This document shows positions 9,233 to 64,000 of a DNA stretch of 64,000 bases, piece by piece. The notes below the pieces were generated by a model. It was not told the DNA's origin. It ran no database searches and worked only from the letters and a program-made list of their open reading frames with translations. A program made the translations under genes and the position numbers. The stretch lies in IMG/VR virus record IMGVR_UViG_3300028584_001240; one strand, written 5' to 3'. This DNA is from a virus (Duplodnaviria > Heunggongvirae > Uroviricota > Caudoviricetes). How positions within the stretch are numbered: the stretch's first letter is position 1; every line of letters starts with the position of its first letter.

Positions 9233-10681
9233 ATGAAAAAAGTAAGAACTCGCGTAGCACCATCACCTACGGGCGATCCACATGTGGGTACCGCCTATAT
9301 TGCCTTGTTTAACTATTGCTTTGCTAAGAAGCATGGTGGTGAGTTCATTCTTCGTATTGAAGACACTGATCAAGTGCGTTCTACCAAAGAATCCGAAGAA
9401 TCTATTTTAAATTCACTTAAATGGTTGGGACTGTCTTGGGATGAAGAACCTTGTCGTCAAAGTGACCGTAAAGCCATTTATCAAGAACATGCTCAAATCC
9501 TTGTAGACAAAGGACATGCTTTCCCATGCTTCTGTGATAGCCATCGCCTTGATAAAATGCGTGAAGATCAAATAGCGGCTGGATTGTCTCCTAAGTATGA
9601 TGGTCACTGCCTTACATTAACATCAGAAGATGTCACTAGTAAGCTAAATGCGGGTGTTTCTCATGTTATCCGTATGAAAGTTCCAACAGAAGGTGTCTGC
9701 ACTGTAAATGATATGTTACGTGGGGCTGTAACCTATGATTGGAAGCAAGTGGATATGCAAGTGCTCATGAAGCAAGATGGTTTACCTACTTATTTCTTGG
9801 CTAACGTTGTGGATGACCACTTGATGGACATTACCCATGTGCTGAAAGGCGAAGAGTGGTTACCGTCTGCACCTAAGATTGTTTTACTGTATCAATACTT
9901 TGGCTGGGAAATGCCTGAGCATTGTCATATGCCTCTGTTGCGTAATATGGACAGAAGTAAATTATCCAAGCGTAAAAATCCTACGTCCATCACCTTTTAT
10001 AAGGACATGGGTTACCTACCAGAAGCTTTATTGAACTATTTGGGTCGTATGGGTTGGTCGATGCCGGATGAAAGAGAAAAGTTTACCTTGCAAGACATGG
10101 TAGATAACTTTGATATACAGCGTGTATCATTGGGTGGCCCTGTTTTCGACGTTAATAAGCTTTCTTGGCTCAATGGTCTATGGTTAAGAGAACTCACGCC
10201 AGATACCTTTAAAGAGAAGCTGTCACAATGGGCATTCAGCACCAATAAGTTTGATAAACTGGTGCCAATGATCCAAAGTCGCGTAGAAAATTTCAGTCAG
10301 GTGAATGATTTGGTGGCCTTCATGTATAGTGGTGATTTGAAATATGATACTTCATTACTAACGCATAAGAAATTAACAGATGCAGAAGTAAAAGATGCCA
10401 TTCAAGTCATGTTATGGGATCTTGAAGCATTGAAGAAATGGAATGAAGTTCAAATATTGGATACATTAAAAGCGTCAGCCGCTAAAATGAATCTAAAATT
10501 GAAAGATATCATGCCATTGGTGTTTGTGATTATTACTGGTTCACTAAATTCTATTTCAGTAATTGATGCAATGAGCTTATTGGGGCCAGACATGACACGT
10601 TATCGTTTCAGATCGGTTCTGAATAAGTTGGGTGGTTTTACTGAACAAGAATTAGATGCATTAATTACTAAATATAAATAA
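9233..10681 (+). CDS. gltX: glutamate--tRNA ligase
   Basis: [16 protein letters not shown] (HIGH), LRIEDTD, KLSKR (KMSKS), full-length anticodon-binding region; resembles gammaproteobacterial GluRS. Confidence 0.97.
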
Positions 10682-12530: not shown

Positions 12531-14291
12531 GATGGAAGCCATTAGATTCATTTACGGGGAGGCAATTTTATAAAGTTCTTGACTTTTTTATTTTATTTAT
12601 ATATACTTAACCGCATGAATTATTTATCTTTTTCGATCAAATCAAATGTTTTTACCTTAAATTATTTAAGGAGCCTTTTATTGTCTAAGAAGATCAAAAA
12701 AACAAGAAAACCTCCCACACCATCTTTTACGCATGAACTTCCACTTAAAACCAATAAACACCAAAACAGAAAACTTTCTATAAAGTTCAAAGCTTTGCGT
12801 GAACTTTATAACATGGTTTTAAGTGAAGTTTTCAAACGTGAGCGTAAAATGTGTAAAGATCTTCGTTTTGCAGAGGCTGTTGCTTTAAATAAAACCGAAT
12901 CAACAAAGAAAAAAGGAAAATCCTTATTTAACTTATTAAGAAAAGAGTATCTTTTAGAAAAAGCTAATCTTCAATCTTTTTCAACAAATGCCAAAAATTC
13001 AAGTTATATGGTTGATCATTTGGATGGTGATACTGTCCAAGTCATAAGCGATAGAGCTTATGATGCTTATATGAATTATAAAATAGGTAAACGAGGTAAA
13101 CCTCGTTTTAAATCTTATAAAAAAGGTTTAAGAAGCATTAGTGGTAAAAAGAACAATTGTGTTATGTTTAAAGATGGAAAAGTTAAATGGAAAGATTTAC
13201 TTATTGACGTTGTTTATGATAAGAAAGATAAAAATGGTGTTCAATTTCATGCGTTATCTCAAAAAATAAAGTATTGTCGAATAGTGGGGCGATTAATAAA
13301 AAGCGAAATTCGTTATTACCTTCAAATTGTTGTTGAAGGTACTCCACTCATTAAACATGATTATCCAACATCAACCATAGGTTTTGATGTTGGTGTATCA
13401 ACTTATGCCTTTGTCGGTGATAATGCTGCTATGTTAGGGCCATTTTGTGCAGAGTTAGAAGATATACAAAAAAAGATAGTTAAATTACAACGAAAAAATA
13501 GCCGTTCAACAAGATCGATGAACAGTCAAAATTTTGAACCTAACTCTTATGAGAAAGGAAAAAAGAAATTTGGTAAAGTTATAAAAGGTAAAAAAGTTTG
13601 GACGAATTCAAAAAACTACAAAAACAATTTAACTAAAATACAAGAACTTTATCGAATTCAAGCAGATAAACGTAAAACGTTACACAATATTTTAGCCAAT
13701 GAAGCTCTTTCATTGGGCAAATATGTAAAGATAGAAAAGAATAATTATAAAGCTTGGCAAAAAGGATGGTTTGGAAAAACTATCGGTTTCCGTGCTCCAA
13801 GTGCATTTGTTTTAACTTTAACTCGCAAGGCTGAAAGTGCTGGTGGGAAAGTTGATCTAATTGACACTTGGACTAGTAAGTTATCTCAATATTGTCATGT
13901 GTGCGATGGTTATCATAAGAAGACACTTTCAGAACGCACACACACTTGTGGTAAGATAACAAAGCAAAGAGATCTTTACTCTGCGTTACTAATAAAGCAC
14001 TATGATCTTGAAGCAAGAAAGGTTAATACGACCCAAATACATGAAAATTGGGAAAGTTTAGATACGATCTTAGAAGATGCGGTATTAACTTGTAGAAATA
14101 AATTTCAATCGGTTGGTAAGTTACCAACTAGCTTAGGCATTCAGGAGCTTGAGAAGAGAAATTCGCATAAAAAATCTGTGGTGGTTAGCCGTCAGTGGCT
14201 GGCTTCGGATAATTGTGAAAGCAAGAAAAAGAAGCCAGAGGAAACAGCTAACAAAAACAGAACACCATAGTTTTATCTATGGGGAGTGTCA
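12531..14291 (+). mobile_element. non-autonomous IS200/IS605-family (IS1341-like) tnpB element
   Basis: Preceded by TTTAA; related subterminal sequences ccattagattcatttacggggagg (left) and ccatagttttatctatggggagtgtca (right); no tnpA in window; ends inferred. Confidence 0.7.
12681..14270 (+). CDS. tnpB: RNA-guided endonuclease TnpB
   Basis: GKPRFK, RuvC-I GFDVG, RuvC-II KIEK, zinc finger CHVC..HTC, RuvC-III QRDLYSA; likely TTG start at 12681 behind SD AAGGAG. Confidence 0.9.
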   Translation: MSKKIKKTRKPPTPSFTHELPLKTNKHQNRKLSIKFKALRELYNMVLSEVFKRERKMCKDLRFAEAVALNKTESTKKKGKSLFNLLRKEYLLEKANLQSFSTNAKNSSYMVDHLDGDTVQVISDRAYDAYMNYKIGKRGKPRFKSYKKGLRSISGKKNNCVMFKDGKVKWKDLLIDVVYDKKDKNGVQFHALSQKIKYCRIVGRLIKSEIRYYLQIVVEGTPLIKHDYPTSTIGFDVGVSTYAFVGDNAAMLGPFCAELEDIQKKIVKLQRKNSRSTRSMNSQNFEPNSYEKGKKKFGKVIKGKKVWTNSKNYKNNLTKIQELYRIQADKRKTLHNILANEALSLGKYVKIEKNNYKAWQKGWFGKTIGFRAPSAFVLTLTRKAESAGGKVDLIDTWTSKLSQYCHVCDGYHKKTLSERTHTCGKITKQRDLYSALLIKHYDLEARKVNTTQIHENWESLDTILEDAVLTCRNKFQSVGKLPTSLGIQELEKRNSHKKSVVVSRQWLASDNCESKKKKPEETANKNRTP

Positions 14292-20583: not shown

Positions 20584-20659
20584 TGGTGCTAAGGACGGGA
20601 TTCGAACCCGTGACCATCGGTTTTAGGGACCGCTGCTCTTACCGCTGAGCTACCAAAGC
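20584..20659 (-). tRNA. tRNA with CUA anticodon (putative amber suppressor or pseudo-tRNA)
   Basis: GCTTTGGTAGCTCAGCGGTAAGAGCAGCGGT-CC-CTA-AA-ACCGATGGTCACGGGTTCGAATCCCGTCCTTAGCACCA; C33 and two U-U acceptor mismatches. Confidence 0.7.
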
Positions 20660-21498: not shown

Positions 21499-22992
21499 TC
21501 AAAAGTTTTTCAACTTATTGAGTTTTTTAGGTGCTGAATCAAACGAGTATTTTGAGAATATCGCTTTCTTTTCTTCTTGTGTTTCATAGAAGTGGATATT
21601 CACTTTACCATCCAGAGCCTTGATAATGTCTGGGGCTGTATTCTTTGGCATTGCTACTGCTTGGAAGTCATCAAAGTAGATAACTTTTTGTGGTTTACCT
21701 TCAAAATAATGACTACTTAGATTTTTAATTCCATGACAGATGTCAAAACCTTCATTAATAACCTCTTGTGGTATAGCAGTAACATCAAAACCTTGTTTAG
21801 CTAATTTTGTATAAAATTGATCTACGGTTGATACACGAGCTAATGCCAAAGATAAATATTCTTGAACATCAAAAAATCTTGAATAAGGTGAATGGGGTTG
21901 TATCTTTTCGGCCAATTCAAAAATTCTCTTATTGAGAGCGTCTGTTTGATTGTGACGATCTTCCATTGTGTCCAATTTGTCAACATAGCTAATCATATCA
22001 TCATAAGAAGTAAATTGTGTAGAATAACTAGAAGATATTTTACCAATGCTGGTATCATTAACATCTTCGGCTCCTGTCACTTGCTGTCTTAACATATATT
22101 TGGAAATCGTGTCTAAGTTGTATTCAACTTTTCGTGTGCCATTTCTCAAATGCGGCTTAACAAAAATATCTTGCGTAAGTCCAGAAAAGAATTCATTGTA
22201 ATCAGCCGTGTGACTATCAGCAAACTTACTTAATTCATCCCTAGCCTTCTCAACATCTAAGATTTTAGAATCACCAGAATAACGTTTAACATCGTTAATA
22301 ATTTTTTCCAGATCACTGGAATAACTATTAATATCACCTTGTTGATTAAAGATAGTTTTCTTGTAACCATTCATAATGTCATCAGCAATCGTCAAACCGA
22401 TAGTCTCTTTGTAGTAAGTATGTCTTCTTTCTAATACAGCATGCAAAGCTGTCTTGAAGTCGTCATCATGTTGAAGGGTATGTATTCTCTTTTTCATATA
22501 GTCTTGAAAAATGAGGTCGGCTGAAAGATCAGATTGCAATTTATCAATCTTAGTAGGAAGTTCATAAGCAGGATTCATTTTTTGTATAAACATCAAACGA
22601 ACAAGAGGACTTGATTTTAAACGGTCTTCAATATAATCTGATGATTTTCTTTTCAATGAATCCAAATCATATAAATTAAATAAAGGTTCAAGACTTTTAT
22701 TGTTATCCACCATAGTGTCTAATTGTTTATGAAGACTGCTGAGTGCTTTCTTATCTATATCATAATAGAGTTCTGGAATTCTTTGAGAAAATATATCACG
22801 ATCAAAAAATAGATTTTTCTTATCTTTTGGATTAACAGATTCTGGTTTTAGGATGAAGGTGATATTGCCAAAACGTGTAAATTCATTATCAGGTTTCATA
22901 GCCGCGATGCTTGGTAGAGGCATTCCACCAAGTTCAACGGCTTTTCTGAGTTTTGATTCGGATAATGAGTGAACTATGATTATTTTAGACAT
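21499..22992 (-). CDS. hypothetical protein resembling a domain of large polyvalent proteins of mobile elements; basic tail
   Basis: VHSLSE.KL...GGMPLPSIA...FGNI...YFEGKP; ends KKLNKLKNF*; family call tentative. Confidence 0.55.
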   Translation of the reverse strand: MSKIIIVHSLSESKLRKAVELGGMPLPSIAAMKPDNEFTRFGNITFILKPESVNPKDKKNLFFDRDIFSQRIPELYYDIDKKALSSLHKQLDTMVDNNKSLEPLFNLYDLDSLKRKSSDYIEDRLKSSPLVRLMFIQKMNPAYELPTKIDKLQSDLSADLIFQDYMKKRIHTLQHDDDFKTALHAVLERRHTYYKETIGLTIADDIMNGYKKTIFNQQGDINSYSSDLEKIINDVKRYSGDSKILDVEKARDELSKFADSHTADYNEFFSGLTQDIFVKPHLRNGTRKVEYNLDTISKYMLRQQVTGAEDVNDTSIGKISSSYSTQFTSYDDMISYVDKLDTMEDRHNQTDALNKRIFELAEKIQPHSPYSRFFDVQEYLSLALARVSTVDQFYTKLAKQGFDVTAIPQEVINEGFDICHGIKNLSSHYFEGKPQKVIYFDDFQAVAMPKNTAPDIIKALDGKVNIHFYETQEEKKAIFSKYSFDSAPKKLNKLKNF

Positions 22993-28529: not shown

Positions 28530-29903
28530 TTAGATTTTTCTCAATTCAAAAGTTGCACCTTTATCAAGAATTTGCCAACCTTGTGATTGAACCTGTTGAC
28601 GATACTGATCAGCTAATGCATAGTTTTTATCTAATTTAGCCTGTTGACGTTTATTAACAAGGTCTACTATCTCTGCAGATGGTTTTGCGGCTTCCGTCAT
28701 CCATTTCTCATAAACCGTTTCTAATGTGGCTTCTGATGGTAAGACGGCTAACAATTTGAACACTTTCAAGACATCTTCGGCTACATTCAAGGATTTAGAC
28801 CTACGCAAGTTCTTCAAGCCTTCATGAAGCACAATAATGACTTGTGGTGTATTGAAATCATCTTCCAATGCATTAAGAGCTTGTTCAAAATAAGCATTGT
28901 CATCAAAATTATCAACCACATATTCTGGTATATCACGAGCGAAGTTATCCCAGTGCCTTTGTGCATCTTGAAGTTCATCGACTTTAAATTCCTGTGATTG
29001 ATTGTATTGTCCTTTATTCAAGAACAGTTTCAATGCTTCACCCGAGTAGACTGTCAACATATCTTTCACGTAGATAGAGTTACCCAACGATTTTGAGAGC
29101 TTTTTACCATCACTTGTCATCATCCCATTGTGTAACCAATAATTGGCTGGGTTAACACCATTATGAGCAACACTCTGCAAGATTTCATTTTCATGATGTG
29201 GAAAGATAAGGTCACGACCACCTCCATGAATATCAAAATGTTTACCTAATGTATGATGATGCATAACAGAACATTCAATATGCCAACCGGGACGGCCTTG
29301 CTTACTAAATACATTACTGTGATATCCATACTTATCATCAAGCTTCCATAATGCAAAGTCAGCTTTATGTTTCTTGTTGTATTCTTTATCATCCAGTCTG
29401 GAATTTTCATCCAAATCCTGCACAATCTTTTTGGAGAGTGGATAACGTTCTTGTTTATTCTTCTGAGTGTCAAAGTAAATACCATCGTCAGTTAAATAAG
29501 CGGTGCCATTTTCAATGAGATCTTCGATGTAATCTGAAATTTCTGGAAGGTATTGAGTCACACGAGGTTCTACATCAGGCATAGGAATTTGCATTTGTTC
29601 TAAAACGGCATGGAATTTATCAATATAGCTGTTTACCAAATCAAGCGGATCAACACCTAATTTTTCTGCCTTCATGATAATTTTGTCATCAACATCAGTG
29701 ATATTACGAACAAGCTTAACTTTCTGACCTTTTGCTAAGAAATAGTTTCTCATCACTTCAAATGAAATGATACTTTTAAGGTGCCCAATGTGAATGTCGT
29801 CATAAAGTGTTACACCACAGACATAAATGCTCACTTCACCAGTTTTATTAGCAACAAAGGTTTCTTTTTGACCTGATAGTGTATTGAGCATTTTTAAATT
29901 CAC
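28530..29903 (-). CDS. cysS: cysteine--tRNA ligase
   Basis: YVCGVT.YD..HIGH, NITDVDDKII, DFALWK, GRPGWHIECS, DIHGGGRDLIFPHHENE, KLSKSLGN, DDFNTP. Confidence 0.97.
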   Translation of the reverse strand: MNLKMLNTLSGQKETFVANKTGEVSIYVCGVTLYDDIHIGHLKSIISFEVMRNYFLAKGQKVKLVRNITDVDDKIIMKAEKLGVDPLDLVNSYIDKFHAVLEQMQIPMPDVEPRVTQYLPEISDYIEDLIENGTAYLTDDGIYFDTQKNKQERYPLSKKIVQDLDENSRLDDKEYNKKHKADFALWKLDDKYGYHSNVFSKQGRPGWHIECSVMHHHTLGKHFDIHGGGRDLIFPHHENEILQSVAHNGVNPANYWLHNGMMTSDGKKLSKSLGNSIYVKDMLTVYSGEALKLFLNKGQYNQSQEFKVDELQDAQRHWDNFARDIPEYVVDNFDDNAYFEQALNALEDDFNTPQVIIVLHEGLKNLRRSKSLNVAEDVLKVFKLLAVLPSEATLETVYEKWMTEAAKPSAEIVDLVNKRQQAKLDKNYALADQYRQQVQSQGWQILDKGATFELRKI

Positions 29904-42510: not shown

Positions 42511-43266
42511 TTATAGTTCATTCGTTACAACTAATTCTTTAAACACGGTTTGTCTTTGATTGATGTTATAGATTAAACGTTCAAGACCAAAAGCTATTTC
42601 CAGCACAAAACATTCTCTTGGTTGATTTTTGACCATCGGTTGATAAGTAAAATCTTTTCTTAATGACACTGAACAGACTTCCATCCATTTATCATTATTG
42701 AATACTTCTATATCAATTGTTTTTAAAGAATAATCAGGCAATCTATCGGAAAGAACAATTCTGACTGGTAAAGCAACCACATCCAAGAATATTTGAGCCA
42801 AAGGTTCTATAATACTTTCTTGGTAGTTATTCTTTGTGTCTTTTGTATATAAACATTGAAATTCTTGTTGATAGAATTCTTTGTATCTGCAGTGTTTGGT
42901 TACTTGGTCCTGTTCACGTCTAAAACTCTTTGATGTCTGCCATACACACAATGGTGGCATGTAATCCTGAGATTTTAAAAGATGTTCCATATACAAATAG
43001 GAACTTGCCGTAGTTTCTGGTTTAAGCACAATAGCGTCATGATTATGTTCTTCCTGTACCCATATATCTTCATCCGTATAATTAGCATTGACTAATTCTC
43101 TCGGAATTAAGCAAGGGGCTTCTATTTGGATAAATCGCCATGATTTATTCTGAGCAAAAAGTAACTCTTGAATTTCAAATTCCATCAGTTTAACCAGATA
43201 GTCTTTCAACATCAAGTCTCGTTTGTTTAAAAAAGGTAAAGCATTAAAGTTGTAAATAAATTCCAT
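42511..43266 (-). CDS. class II aaRS catalytic core, homodimeric GlyRS-like, lacking anticodon-binding domain (251 aa)
   Basis: LKPETT, motif 2 WQTSKSFRRE..RYKEFYQQEFQ, YS.KTIDIE, WMEVCSVSLR.DF, motif 3 VLEIAFGLERL; ATG 43266 with SD AGGAG. Confidence 0.8.
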   Translation of the reverse strand: MEFIYNFNALPFLNKRDLMLKDYLVKLMEFEIQELLFAQNKSWRFIQIEAPCLIPRELVNANYTDEDIWVQEEHNHDAIVLKPETTASSYLYMEHLLKSQDYMPPLCVWQTSKSFRREQDQVTKHCRYKEFYQQEFQCLYTKDTKNNYQESIIEPLAQIFLDVVALPVRIVLSDRLPDYSLKTIDIEVFNNDKWMEVCSVSLRKDFTYQPMVKNQPRECFVLEIAFGLERLIYNINQRQTVFKELVVTNEL

Positions 43267-43303
43267 GATAGTTCTCCTAGTTAGTTTGTTAAATTTTAAG
43301 CAT

Positions 43304-43326
43304 AAAAAAACCGCCGTTAGGCGGTT
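43304..43326 (-). terminator. attenuator terminator in leader of GlyRS-like gene
   Basis: AACCGCC-TAAC-GGCGGTT-TTTTT located between promoter and gene. Confidence 0.8.
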
Positions 43327-43367
43327 CGTGTCATTGTCAAAGGACAAACAGGTATACGCCAAAACCT

Positions 43368-43418
43368 TTAAGTTTGACGGCCACCACCAACAATGTTTGA
43401 AAAATTAATATGTTTCAT
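43368..43418 (-). CDS. leader peptide MKHINFSNIVGGGRQT
   Basis: SD AAGGA, three tandem Gly codons GGT GGT GGC, upstream promoter TTGACT-17-TAAAGT (43474-43446). Confidence 0.75.
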   Translation of the reverse strand: MKHINFSNIVGGGRQT

Positions 43419-43595
43419 GTGTTTATCCTTTTTGAAATTACTTTAACTTTAACAAAACAAAGAGATTAAGTCAACATTTTTCTTAAATCATAAGTAAAAA
43501 AAGAGTAAAGTGATTGTAAATAAGAACAATATTGATTTACTTTCTAGAAAATAGGAATAAGATGTAAGTATTAAACAAACATCTCTGAGGCACTT

Positions 43596-44000
43596 ATGAA
43601 ATTCCTATTCGGCATCCCATTATTGTTCACACTAAGTGGATGTATTGCTGATCCTTATTATGATGATTCATACAGCTATACAGAAACAACAACAAGAACG
43701 CAGTATGTTCCATCGGGAAGTTCGATGATTTATACTGAAACAGTTGTTCGTCCACAGATTTACTATCAACCAGCACCAGTGTATGTGTATCCAAGACCCG
43801 TTTATAGACCTTACTACAACGATAGAGGGCCACATTATAGACCTCATTATAATAGACCGGGACATGATTACAGACCTAACCGTCCACATAGACCTGACTA
43901 TAACAATGGTCATGGCAGACCTGATGGACATGGACCTAGACCGGGAAATGGCAACGATCATGGTGGTCGTCCTGATAGACCGCGTGGTGGTAGAGATTAA
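43596..44000 (+). CDS. Pro/Arg/His/Gly-rich lipoprotein
   Basis: Lipobox LSGC; low-complexity YRP/GHGRP repeats. Confidence 0.75.
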   Translation: MKFLFGIPLLFTLSGCIADPYYDDSYSYTETTTRTQYVPSGSSMIYTETVVRPQIYYQPAPVYVYPRPVYRPYYNDRGPHYRPHYNRPGHDYRPNRPHRPDYNNGHGRPDGHGPRPGNGNDHGGRPDRPRGGRD

Positions 44001-62681: not shown

Positions 62682-64000
62682 ATGTACAAGTCCATTATTA
62701 AATCGGATATCCAAAATTATCTGACATCAAAAAGCATCACGTTAACGGTTGATGTATCGTATTCAAGTTTTGAAAATTTTCATTATCAAACATCTATCCT
62801 TTTTCAATTAAATAAAAAAGGCGACTTTGACACGGCCAGCTTGATTGATTATTTATTGAAAACCACTCATTACGAAAACATTGAAATAACAGGGAAAGCT
62901 TTTTTGTCTTTCAAAATGAATTTAATGAATACACAAACAGTGCAAACAAAACTAAAAGAAACAGTGGTAGTCGATTACTGTGGTGTTAACGTTGCAAAAA
63001 AAATGCACATCGGACATATACGGTCTATGTTTATTGGCGACTTTGTTGTTCGGAGCCATCAGAATATGGGTGATGAAGTTATTTCATATAATCATATTGG
63101 TGATTGGGGAAATCAATTTGGTTTCCTACTCAATTACATTATGAAGAATGATTTAGCAAAGAACTTAGACAATCAAAAGCTCACTGAGTATTATAAGCTC
63201 GCTTATAGTGCCTATAACCTATCCAAAGAAAGTGATGATAATTCATTTGCACTTGAATCGGATAATGTTGCGTATAATCTTCAAAATAAACTTGATGATA
63301 AATTGCTAGCTTTATGGCAAAAATGTGTCGATATTAGTTTGATTGATCTAGAAGATACAATTAAAGAATTTAAGCTCAAATTGAACATTGCTGATACCAA
63401 GGGTGAAAGCTTCTTTGCTCAGTTCTGTCATGAAATCGTTGAAGACTTAATCAAAAAACAAATTGCCAGTGTTGATGATAATGGGTCGGTGTATGTTCAA
63501 CTTGAAAATAACAAGCTGGTCATCAAAAAAACGAATGGCACCTTTTTGTATGCTCTTTATGATTTAGCCGCTATAAAATGGCGGGTAGAACAACATAACC
63601 CAGATAAAATAGTGTATGTGGTTGATAAACGGCAGTCACTGCATTTTGAAACAATCTTCATGATTGCTAAAAAAGCAGGTTATGCAACCGATAAAAATAA
63701 GCTTGTCCATTTGGGTTTTGGTACCATCTTAGGTGAAGATAATAAGCCTATCAAAACAAAAACAGGAAAATCATTGTATTTGGATGATCTGTTAATGGAA
63801 GGTAAAAATGAATTATTAAAATCTACACACTTTACAAAGCTCTCAGGTGAGATACAAACTGAGTTGTTGAATAAAACGATTGTTGGTGGTCTTAAATTTC
63901 ATGATTTAAAATTAAGCAAGCATCAAGATTATGTGTTTGACTGGAAACATGTTTTAAACTTCTCTGGTGGTTCAGCTCCTTATCTTCAAAATGCTTCTGT
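62682..64000 (+). CDS. argS: arginine--tRNA ligase (3' end outside window)
   Basis: Own translation: VVVDYCGVNVAKKMHIGHIRSMFIGD, NHIGDWGNQFG, KGESFF, YVVDKRQSLHF, HLGFG, IKTKTG, GGSAPYLQ. Confidence 0.95.
   Translation, partial: MYKSIIKSDIQNYLTSKSITLTVDVSYSSFENFHYQTSILFQLNKKGDFDTASLIDYLLKTTHYENIEITGKAFLSFKMNLMNTQTVQTKLKETVVVDYCGVNVAKKMHIGHIRSMFIGDFVVRSHQNMGDEVISYNHIGDWGNQFGFLLNYIMKNDLAKNLDNQKLTEYYKLAYSAYNLSKESDDNSFALESDNVAYNLQNKLDDKLLALWQKCVDISLIDLEDTIKEFKLKLNIADTKGESFFAQFCHEIVEDLIKKQIASVDDNGSVYVQLENNKLVIKKTNGTFLYALYDLAAIKWRVEQHNPDKIVYVVDKRQSLHFETIFMIAKKAGYATDKNKLVHLGFGTILGEDNKPIKTKTGKSLYLDDLLMEGKNELLKSTHFTKLSGEIQTELLNKTIVGGLKFHDLKLSKHQDYVFDWKHVLNFSGGSAPYLQNAS

Follow-up and report, generated by a model that had tools for sequence, protein, structure and literature searches.

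Leader-peptide attenuation is a textbook mechanism for the control of biosynthetic operons and of pheST. In the pheM/pheST system of Escherichia coli, an aminoacyl-tRNA synthetase gene is regulated through codons for the enzyme's own amino acid, by means of a short open reading frame (ORF), alternative hairpins and an intrinsic terminator. The trpL, hisL and thrL leaders follow the same four-region logic (1:2, 2:3 and 3:4 pairings), with a stop codon beside region 2 and with region 2 starting about 10-18 nt after the regulatory codons. A different solution is found in the glyQS T-box of Bacillus (RF00230), where the signal is uncharged versus charged tRNA-Gly and the output is terminator read-through before the gene for glycyl-tRNA synthetase (GlyRS). 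Herein, a GlyRS-like gene and its upstream leader were analysed in a 64,000-nt stretch of viral DNA (IMG/VR record IMGVR_UViG_3300028584_001240, Caudoviricetes; the whole stretch is called the window below). The leader probably acts as a transcription attenuator of the leader-peptide (ribosome-mediated) type, which would sense how much Gly-tRNA(Gly) is available and thereby control a one-gene cassette for a minimal GlyRS-like enzyme, a reading supported by its predicted anatomy and by comparison among relatives.

The locus resembles each of these systems in part. Compared with pheM/pheST, to which it has no sequence relationship, it carries two to four Gly codons instead of Phe codons, the gene encodes a 251-aa catalytic core without the anticodon-binding part, and the unit is found both in genomes resembling those of giant phages and, in some bacteria, as a stand-alone cassette. 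Unlike trpL, hisL and thrL, it precedes a synthetase-like gene rather than a biosynthetic operon, and it displays a prominent 7-16 bp helix over the Shine-Dalgarno (SD) sequence and AUG of the leader, together with, in the window copy, a very short antiterminator. Pairing with the ribosome-binding site is also possible within the trp leader RNA. The glyQS T-box binds tRNA directly without translation, whereas here a conserved ORF is present and no match to the T-box model was obtained, either at the Rfam gathering score or at E<=10 on positions 43200-43600. The glycine riboswitch model (RF00504) was likewise without a match at both settings. At the gathering score, Rfam returned only tRNAs, and at E<=10 only sub-threshold matches to small RNA (sRNA) models and to Trp_leader (RF00513; 21.7 bits against a gathering score of 41, E=0.044), the latter a resemblance of architecture only. 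Full-text literature searches and Rfam yielded neither a Gly-codon leader attenuator nor such an attenuator in phage genomes, and a jumbo-phage review contains no Gly-codon attenuator for a phage synthetase. The element can thus be described as a glycine version of known leader-peptide attenuation, apparently undescribed. The initial annotation was aware of no earlier Gly attenuator on a mobile element; the literature search agrees as to the absence of a precedent, but the restriction to mobile elements does not hold, since the unit is also found in bacterial chromosomes.

Anatomy of the leader in the window

The initial annotation had listed, in order, a promoter-like site, an SD sequence, a leader with three Gly codons, a 1:2 hairpin, a 2:3 pairing and a terminator. 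All of these parts were located on the minus strand, and a further long-range helix, designated P0, was added to them:

43446-43474, minus strand: promoter-like site of sigma-70 type (-35 TTGACT at 43474-43469, spacer of 17 nt, -10 TAAAGT at 43451-43446)
43430-43426, minus strand: leader SD AAGGA, 7 nt 5' of the ATG at 43418
43431-43420, minus strand: 5' strand of P0, AAAGGATAAACA, spanning the leader SD AAGGA and bordering the ATG; forms a 12-bp helix in the minimum free energy (MFE) structure
43418-43368, minus strand: predicted leader ORF MKHINFSNIVGGGRQT plus TAA (ATG at 43418, TAA at 43370-43368, 16 codons)
43388-43380, minus strand: putative regulatory codons GGT GGT GGC, the tandem Gly codons of the leader, reached after ten codons
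43379-43373, minus strand: region 1, CGTCAAA, 5' arm of the 1:2 hairpin
43366-43357, minus strand: region 2, GGTTTTGGCG, able to pair with region 1 (through TTTGGCG at 43363-43357) or, by GGCG, with the 5' arm of the terminator
43350-43339, minus strand: 3' strand of P0, TGTTTGTCCTTT, partner of AAAGGATAAACA; alternatively part of a local hairpin TTGTC-CTTT-GACAA at 43347-43334
43327-43308 (stem), minus strand: intrinsic terminator (regions 3 and 4), GAACCGCC-TAAC-GGCGGTTT, with an 8-bp GC-rich stem and seven T at 43310-43304
43278-43274, minus strand: SD AGGAG of the gene; 38 nt separate the terminator from the gene ATG at 43266
43266-42511, minus strand: minimal class II GlyRS-like gene, ATG at 43266 to stop at 42511, 251 aa
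42504-42489, minus strand: the gene's own terminator, closing the one-gene cassette

The stop codon of the leader lies in the loop of the 1:2 hairpin CGTCAAA/TTTGGCG, and the 2:3 pairing consists of GGCG (43360-43357) and the complementary CGCC (43323-43320) in the 5' arm of the terminator. Three GGN codons in tandem are improbable by chance at the GC content of the window (32%). The leader terminator is clear, three terminator-like sites having been found where 0.9 were expected from shuffles. The 2:3 pairing that the initial annotation had described is present, yet it comprises only 4 bp and is the weakest of the family. Folding of the leader RNA recovered the 1:2 hairpin and the terminator as had been anticipated, but the z-score of the leader region against shuffles is only -2.07, which is not decisive, and the long-range P0 had been overlooked. 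The case from this single sequence is moderate, and the decisive support comes from comparison among relatives.

Conservation of the leader and of its alternative structures

A protein search over 5.8 billion proteins yielded 718 relatives with up to 96% identity, and DNA around relatives of the gene was taken from assemblies, metagenomes, viral contigs and genomes, giving 63 loci with distinct upstream regions. The complete series of promoter-like site, SD, short ORF, hairpin, GC-rich terminator and gene was found in 14 diverged lineages (50-96% protein identity), both on AT-rich contigs that look phage-like and in the GC-rich chromosomes of Paraburkholderia. All 14 have an intrinsic terminator between the leader ORF and the gene. 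The leader ORF remains a prediction, with an ATG ORF at the equivalent place in these lineages, most of them with an SD; a TTGAC-type -35 with a -10 ending 24-33 nt 5' of the leader ATG was recognized in nine of the 14. Small ATG ORFs encoding GG or GFG were present in 26 of the 63 upstream regions, compared with six of 63 reverse-complement controls. Conservation of the Gly codons in relatives had been set beforehand as a test of the attenuator, and these codons were kept in the 14 lineages with synonymous wobble changes. The leaders read as follows:

Window and L007: MKHINFSNIVGGGRQT
L011: MNHIIISNIVGGGRQT
L008: MNVILVIIGGGSQT
L009: MFNSQLTTIVMQGGCPQT
L010: MQTFSVIIAVIGGGRQL... (continues)
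L082: MLPNIVITVIGGGCPKK... (continues)
L083: MKTHNTFTSIGGGQPTG
L085: MYNLISLIVVGGGRPKN... (continues)
L034: MVHFLTKQNGGGANFWR
L012: MTTFNFNNIGFGGGC... (continues)
L086: MFSYFINKGFGEGC... (continues)
L013-15 and L089/90: ...KKGFGGYSLKE and variants
L033, L079 and L080: ...QRGFGGT/N
L028 and L030-32: ...VIGNGAGARRSG

Across lineages, the leader peptides share only G-[F/G]-G-G, and Gly accounts for 47 of 286 leader residues. The third bases of the Gly codons vary freely (GGT GGT GGC, GGC GGC GGT and GGA GGG GGT), and synonymous changes are also seen in close pairs, from GGC to GGT between L079 and L080 and from GGG to GGA between L089 and L090. Furthermore, GG dinucleotides fall on codon positions 1, 2 and 3 in a ratio of 47/11/10 (chi-square p=3e-9). 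The periodicity together with the free wobble argues for translated regulatory codons and not for a purely structural G-rich strand. In the clade with GGG leaders, the Gly codons mostly precede region 1, and the stem does not require them; there too the wobble base varies and GG is invariant.

The terminator itself differs strongly among lineages, with about seven different stems (CCGCC, CCACC, CCCAC, GGCUGC, GGCUAC, CCCAGUCA and GGCGCC/GGCGCU), and each lineage has, downstream of its Gly codons, a segment complementary to its own terminator stem. In a cross-lineage test, the best duplex between region 2 and the terminator 5' arm averaged -12.5 kcal/mol for self pairs versus -8.2 kcal/mol for cross pairs (permutation p=1e-5), and the same test with nine lineages gave p=0.00025. 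In a MAFFT alignment of eight GGG-type leaders, sliding the partner lowered pairing from 80% to 33-60% for 1:2 plus 3:4 and from 84% to 31-56% for 2:3. In alignment A2, 85.7% of the cells of the 1:2 hairpin (region 1) were paired, with three pairs changed on both sides. The alignment-free duplex test was relied on because loops of variable length misalign the terminator arms in the MAFFT alignment.

The geometry is also consistent with a ribosome-operated switch. Across the family, region 2 begins 6-18 nt after the last Gly codon, just past the leading edge of a ribosome stalled there, and in short leaders the stop codon lies in or beside the 1:2 hairpin, so that a terminating ribosome would cover region 2, which in the window lies 2-11 nt after the stop. 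Structures were modelled with a 27-nt ribosome footprint on transcripts ending at the terminator loop. The modelled leaders had the 1:2 hairpin in their MFE structures. When the footprint covered the Gly codons, 2:3 entered the MFE of L008, L010, L012, L013, L015, L030 and L034; when it covered the stop codon, 2:3 was absent in short leaders. In nearly every lineage, a segment lying between region 2 and the terminator pairs with the leader SD/AUG to give P0. Its sequences are unrelated between lineages, and the cross-lineage test gave -11.0 kcal/mol for self versus -7.9 kcal/mol for cross pairs (p=2e-5). P0 and 2:3 exclude each other topologically; P0 is therefore part of the terminating conformation, and it would also limit the leader to a single round of translation. 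Altogether, the conservation of glycine, the tracking of the terminator by region 2 and the geometry lend support to the proposal of the initial annotation that a Gly-codon, ribosome-mediated attenuator precedes the GlyRS-like gene.

The terminator lies close to the gene, at 28-71 nt in 13 of the 14 lineages and at 164 nt in L009, and a short gap leaves little room for a separate promoter. In the window, the sole promoter-like site 3' of the terminator (TTAACA-16-TATCAT) overlaps the start codon of the gene and cannot serve it; transcription of the gene from a promoter downstream of the terminator, which had been named as an outcome that would speak against the attenuator, is thus not indicated.

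In a quick tree of the proteins, the GGG leaders form one clade (support 98) that is sister to two GFGG leaders, and GFGG is likewise the type of the L013 clade and of the Paraburkholderia clade. Leader types therefore follow the protein tree, so that leader and gene have been passed on together across long distances. Genes with the GNGAG type are surrounded in the tree by leaderless ones, and this type may represent an independent, less clearly glycine-specific gain. In the corresponding leaders (L028 and L030-L032, ...AVIGNGAGARRSG), the Gly region ends in GNGAG, and one Gly codon of the L028 leader is replaced by GAC (Asp). GNGAG also forms the last five residues of the E. coli thrL peptide, probably a coincidence.

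Several leaders depart from the common form. The L008 (447-550) and L009 (2201-2342) leaders stop at TAG, followed in frame by TTT GGN GGN (F-G-G), and in L008 the extended frame ends at a TAA abutting the terminator 5' arm, so that amber suppression would bring the ribosome onto the terminator. This case does not apply to the window leader, which stops at TAA. In L017, a 55% relative, the FGG codons of the leader MNTRFHSLYPQLSTNKFGGCQSYTI are able to pair with a downstream CACCACC, and no GC-rich terminator follows. In L004, L087 and L088 (68% relative), the gene lies within a tRNA cluster and an ORF MNTILMIRGRG with a strong SD is found about 80 nt upstream, accompanied by a small hairpin and no terminator; it may represent a decayed leader or a translational version of it.

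Proposed mechanism and competing explanations

Under the attenuator reading, a host-type promoter would start a leader RNA of about 135 nt, on which a ribosome would load at the SD/AUG and arrive at GGU GGU GGC after ten codons. With ample Gly-tRNA, the ribosome would reach the UAA in the 1:2 loop and cover region 2, whereupon the 3:4 terminator would form, P0 would close over the SD/AUG and transcription would end at the T run. When Gly-tRNA is scarce, the ribosome would stall on the Gly codons and cover region 1; region 2, free just outside the stalled ribosome, would then pair with the terminator 5' arm and RNA polymerase would enter the gene. If the leader is not translated at all, 1:2, P0 and 3:4 would all form, again giving termination. 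By raising Gly-tRNA, the enzyme would shut down its own synthesis in a negative feedback.

Several observations weigh against this scheme. About 40 of the 63 distinct loci have no leader, the gene there lying behind tRNA genes or inside an operon. The promoter hexamers of the window are not above chance, an equal score being reached in 22% of shuffles. The 2:3 duplex of the window (-8.0 kcal/mol) is the weakest of the 14, and for the window, L009, L079 and L033 the model yields 2:3 only with the SD/AUG occupied as well, for instance by a second initiating ribosome; for the window, this follows from the strength of P0. In L010, L012, L082, L085 and L086, the ORF runs through region 2, so that the stop codon must play a different role there. 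Column-wise covariation in a MAFFT alignment of eight GGG-type leaders was no better than in shuffles. The Phe inside GFGG is kept and is not explained by glycine sensing. Finally, glycylation of tRNA-Gly by the mini-GlyRS is presumed, the protein having no anticodon-binding domain.

One alternative is a general translation-coupling device, in which leader translation and P0 set a fixed or growth-rate-dependent level of read-through and the Gly codons are a by-product of G-rich stems. P0 has support equal to that of 2:3 (p=2e-5), the 2:3 pairing of the window is weak, and region 2, when translated, reads F-G-G or L-G-G, so that G-rich stems can indeed mimic Gly codons. Such a by-product would not account for GG at codon position 1 in 47 of 68 cases, nor for the GGG clade, whose invariant GG with varying wobble lies mostly 5' of region 1, where the stem does not need it; this explanation is considered unlikely. 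The retained Phe would fit a sensor in the nascent peptide, in the style of TnaC or SpeFL, in which the G-F-G-G or G-G-G peptide itself causes the stall when a small molecule or the state of the translation machinery calls for it, and the stall flips the same RNA switch. The Phe is kept among lineages with otherwise unlike leaders and a wide range of GC content (L012, L086, L013-15, L089 and Paraburkholderia), and in short leaders the motif lies 1-6 codons from the stop. However, one entire clade has GGG without Phe, and the remaining peptide and the length before the motif are unconserved, whereas the arrest peptides known so far require longer conserved stretches within the exit tunnel. Codons for the presumed own amino acid of the enzyme offer the simpler reading, and a peptide sensor is regarded as decidedly unlikely.

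The complete promoter-to-terminator unit could also be an independent small gene, encoding an sRNA of about 135 nt or a 16-aa peptide with its own function, the synthetase being expressed through incidental read-through or from an unrecognised phage promoter. The sub-threshold Rfam matches to sRNA models agree with this, as does the possibility that giant phages use non-sigma-70 promoters invisible to the scan. Against it, the unit always stands directly 5' of one gene family in unrelated contexts (phage contigs, kup and GNAT/hydrolase genes) with a short spacer to the gene, the peptide is unconserved outside the Gly motif, and complementarity between region 2 and the terminator would have no role in a plain sRNA; the small-gene account is thus highly improbable. 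The most remote of the alternatives is a riboswitch binding tRNA or glycine (T-box or glycine riboswitch) with an incidental ORF. The leader is structured and Firmicutes GlyRS genes use T-boxes, yet Stem I and an antiterminator would not both fit into so short a leader, neither model was matched even at E<=10, and the SD, the ATG and the codon periodicity are conserved.

As a physiological trigger, host defence directed at tRNA or synthetases, which the initial annotation had offered as an example, is pure speculation. A broader and tentative possibility, less likely than the attenuator itself, is an "emergency glycylation" cassette, in which a dedicated sensor of Gly-tRNA charging is joined to an anticodon-blind minimal GlyRS and moves between giant phages and bacterial chromosomes, being switched on when the host supply of glycyl-tRNA collapses, for example through phage takeover, Gly-tRNA toxins or synthetase inhibition.

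The GlyRS-like enzyme and its genomic setting

By hidden Markov model, motif 2 and fold, the enzyme is nearest to alpha2 GlyRS. The protein matches PF00587, and its best NCBIfam model is GlyRS (1.3e-12), with 47 bits against an equivalog cut-off of 312, so that the score of a full-length equivalog is not reached. It aligns with the motif 2 pattern PET...KSFRxE...REFxQxE of mycobacterial GlyRS. An AlphaFold (AF2) model built from 32 relatives had a pLDDT (predicted local distance difference test) of 90.5, and a Foldseek search of the PDB with this model placed alpha2 GlyRS at the top, followed by the PylRS and ProRS cores. The window protein has its class IIa core, motif 2 pattern and fold in common with alpha2 GlyRS (M. 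tuberculosis 8t5n, T. thermophilus 1ati), but it is only about 20% identical to it and lacks the insertion domains and the C-terminal anticodon-binding domain. The latter domain was not found in the 251 aa, which end shortly after motif 3.

The best named relatives of the gene belong to giant phages, namely Xanthomonas phage XbC2 (66%), uncultured phages of 630 kb, and Caulobacter and Brevundimonas jumbo phages; the window therefore most likely derives from a very large phage. This assignment of the replicon is weakened by L011, a 94% relative with the same leader, which sits on a 1.86-Mb contig (Ga0308158_10000001). A near-identity DNA search with 24 kb of the window against a phage collection gave no match, and a distant DNA search matched the coding region only, in three giant phages with tRNA genes and no leader upstream. 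The leader-gene unit is not restricted to phages or mobile elements, as is evident from the two GC-rich Paraburkholderia chromosomes (L079 and L080, 50% protein identity), where GNAT/hydrolase genes are neighbours of the unit, and from L086, a 70% relative adjoining the kup potassium transporter gene on a 2.2-Mb contig. For the contigs of L011 (1.86 Mb) and L086 (2.23 Mb), a huge phage, a bacterium or a chimeric assembly are all possible. A TacT-like toxin acting on Gly-tRNA was considered for the GNAT upstream of the Paraburkholderia copy and set aside, since only generic GNAT matches were obtained and the second Paraburkholderia genome has another neighbour.

Upstream of the leader in the window, the nearest ORF (43596-44000, plus strand) is divergent and begins MKFLFGIPLLFTLSGC, a lipoprotein signal with lipobox. 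This arrangement most likely places the leader in a divergent intergenic region, where it would need a promoter of its own. On the 96% relative, gene callers picked another frame overlapping this lipoprotein-like ORF.

The leader is associated with only one of the synthetase genes of the window. No cognate-codon attenuator was found before cysS, before argS or before the GluRS/GlnRS-type gene; the short ORFs in front of cysS (MKIKFSVV) and argS (MNTKLLRRL) have neither a GC-rich terminator nor clear runs of cognate codons. Two further synthetase genes, GluRS/GlnRS-type and CysRS, were recognized by Pfam, and the third listed here was named argS in the initial annotation only. Seven tRNA genes are also present, one of them with a CTA anticodon, alongside many ORFs without any family:

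9233-10681, plus strand: further synthetase gene
28530-29903, minus strand: further synthetase gene
62682-63998, plus strand: further synthetase gene, argS (so named in the initial annotation)
20584-20659, minus strand: tRNA with anticodon CTA (amber suppressor)
21499-22992, minus strand: 497-aa protein with an N-terminal PBECR5 (phage barnase/EndoU/colicin E5-D/RelE-like) nuclease domain, adjoining the tRNA cluster
12579-14270, plus strand: transposase-like ORF

Among the loci of the GlyRS-like gene, tRNA-Gly is the commonest tRNA. The tRNA genes preceding leaderless copies are of the Gly, Ala, Ser, Tyr and Glu types, and in four distant relatives (L061, L063, L066 and L069) a CTA suppressor tRNA precedes the minimal GlyRS-like gene by 53-391 nt.

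These findings bear on a synthetase core of 251 aa that has remained an orphan and occurs in many giant phages. The conserved Gly leader provides a regulatory argument that this enzyme acts on glycine and feeds the Gly-tRNA pool, and the leader itself would constitute a compact natural Gly-tRNA sensor of about 135 nt. If the emergency-cassette reading were true, the leader would provide the first functional annotation for a large family of orphan enzymes, and no other attenuator that senses an amino acid would be known from a phage. The leader further suggests that very large phages may monitor the charging of host tRNA by a cis-acting device for which host ribosomes and RNA polymerase suffice.

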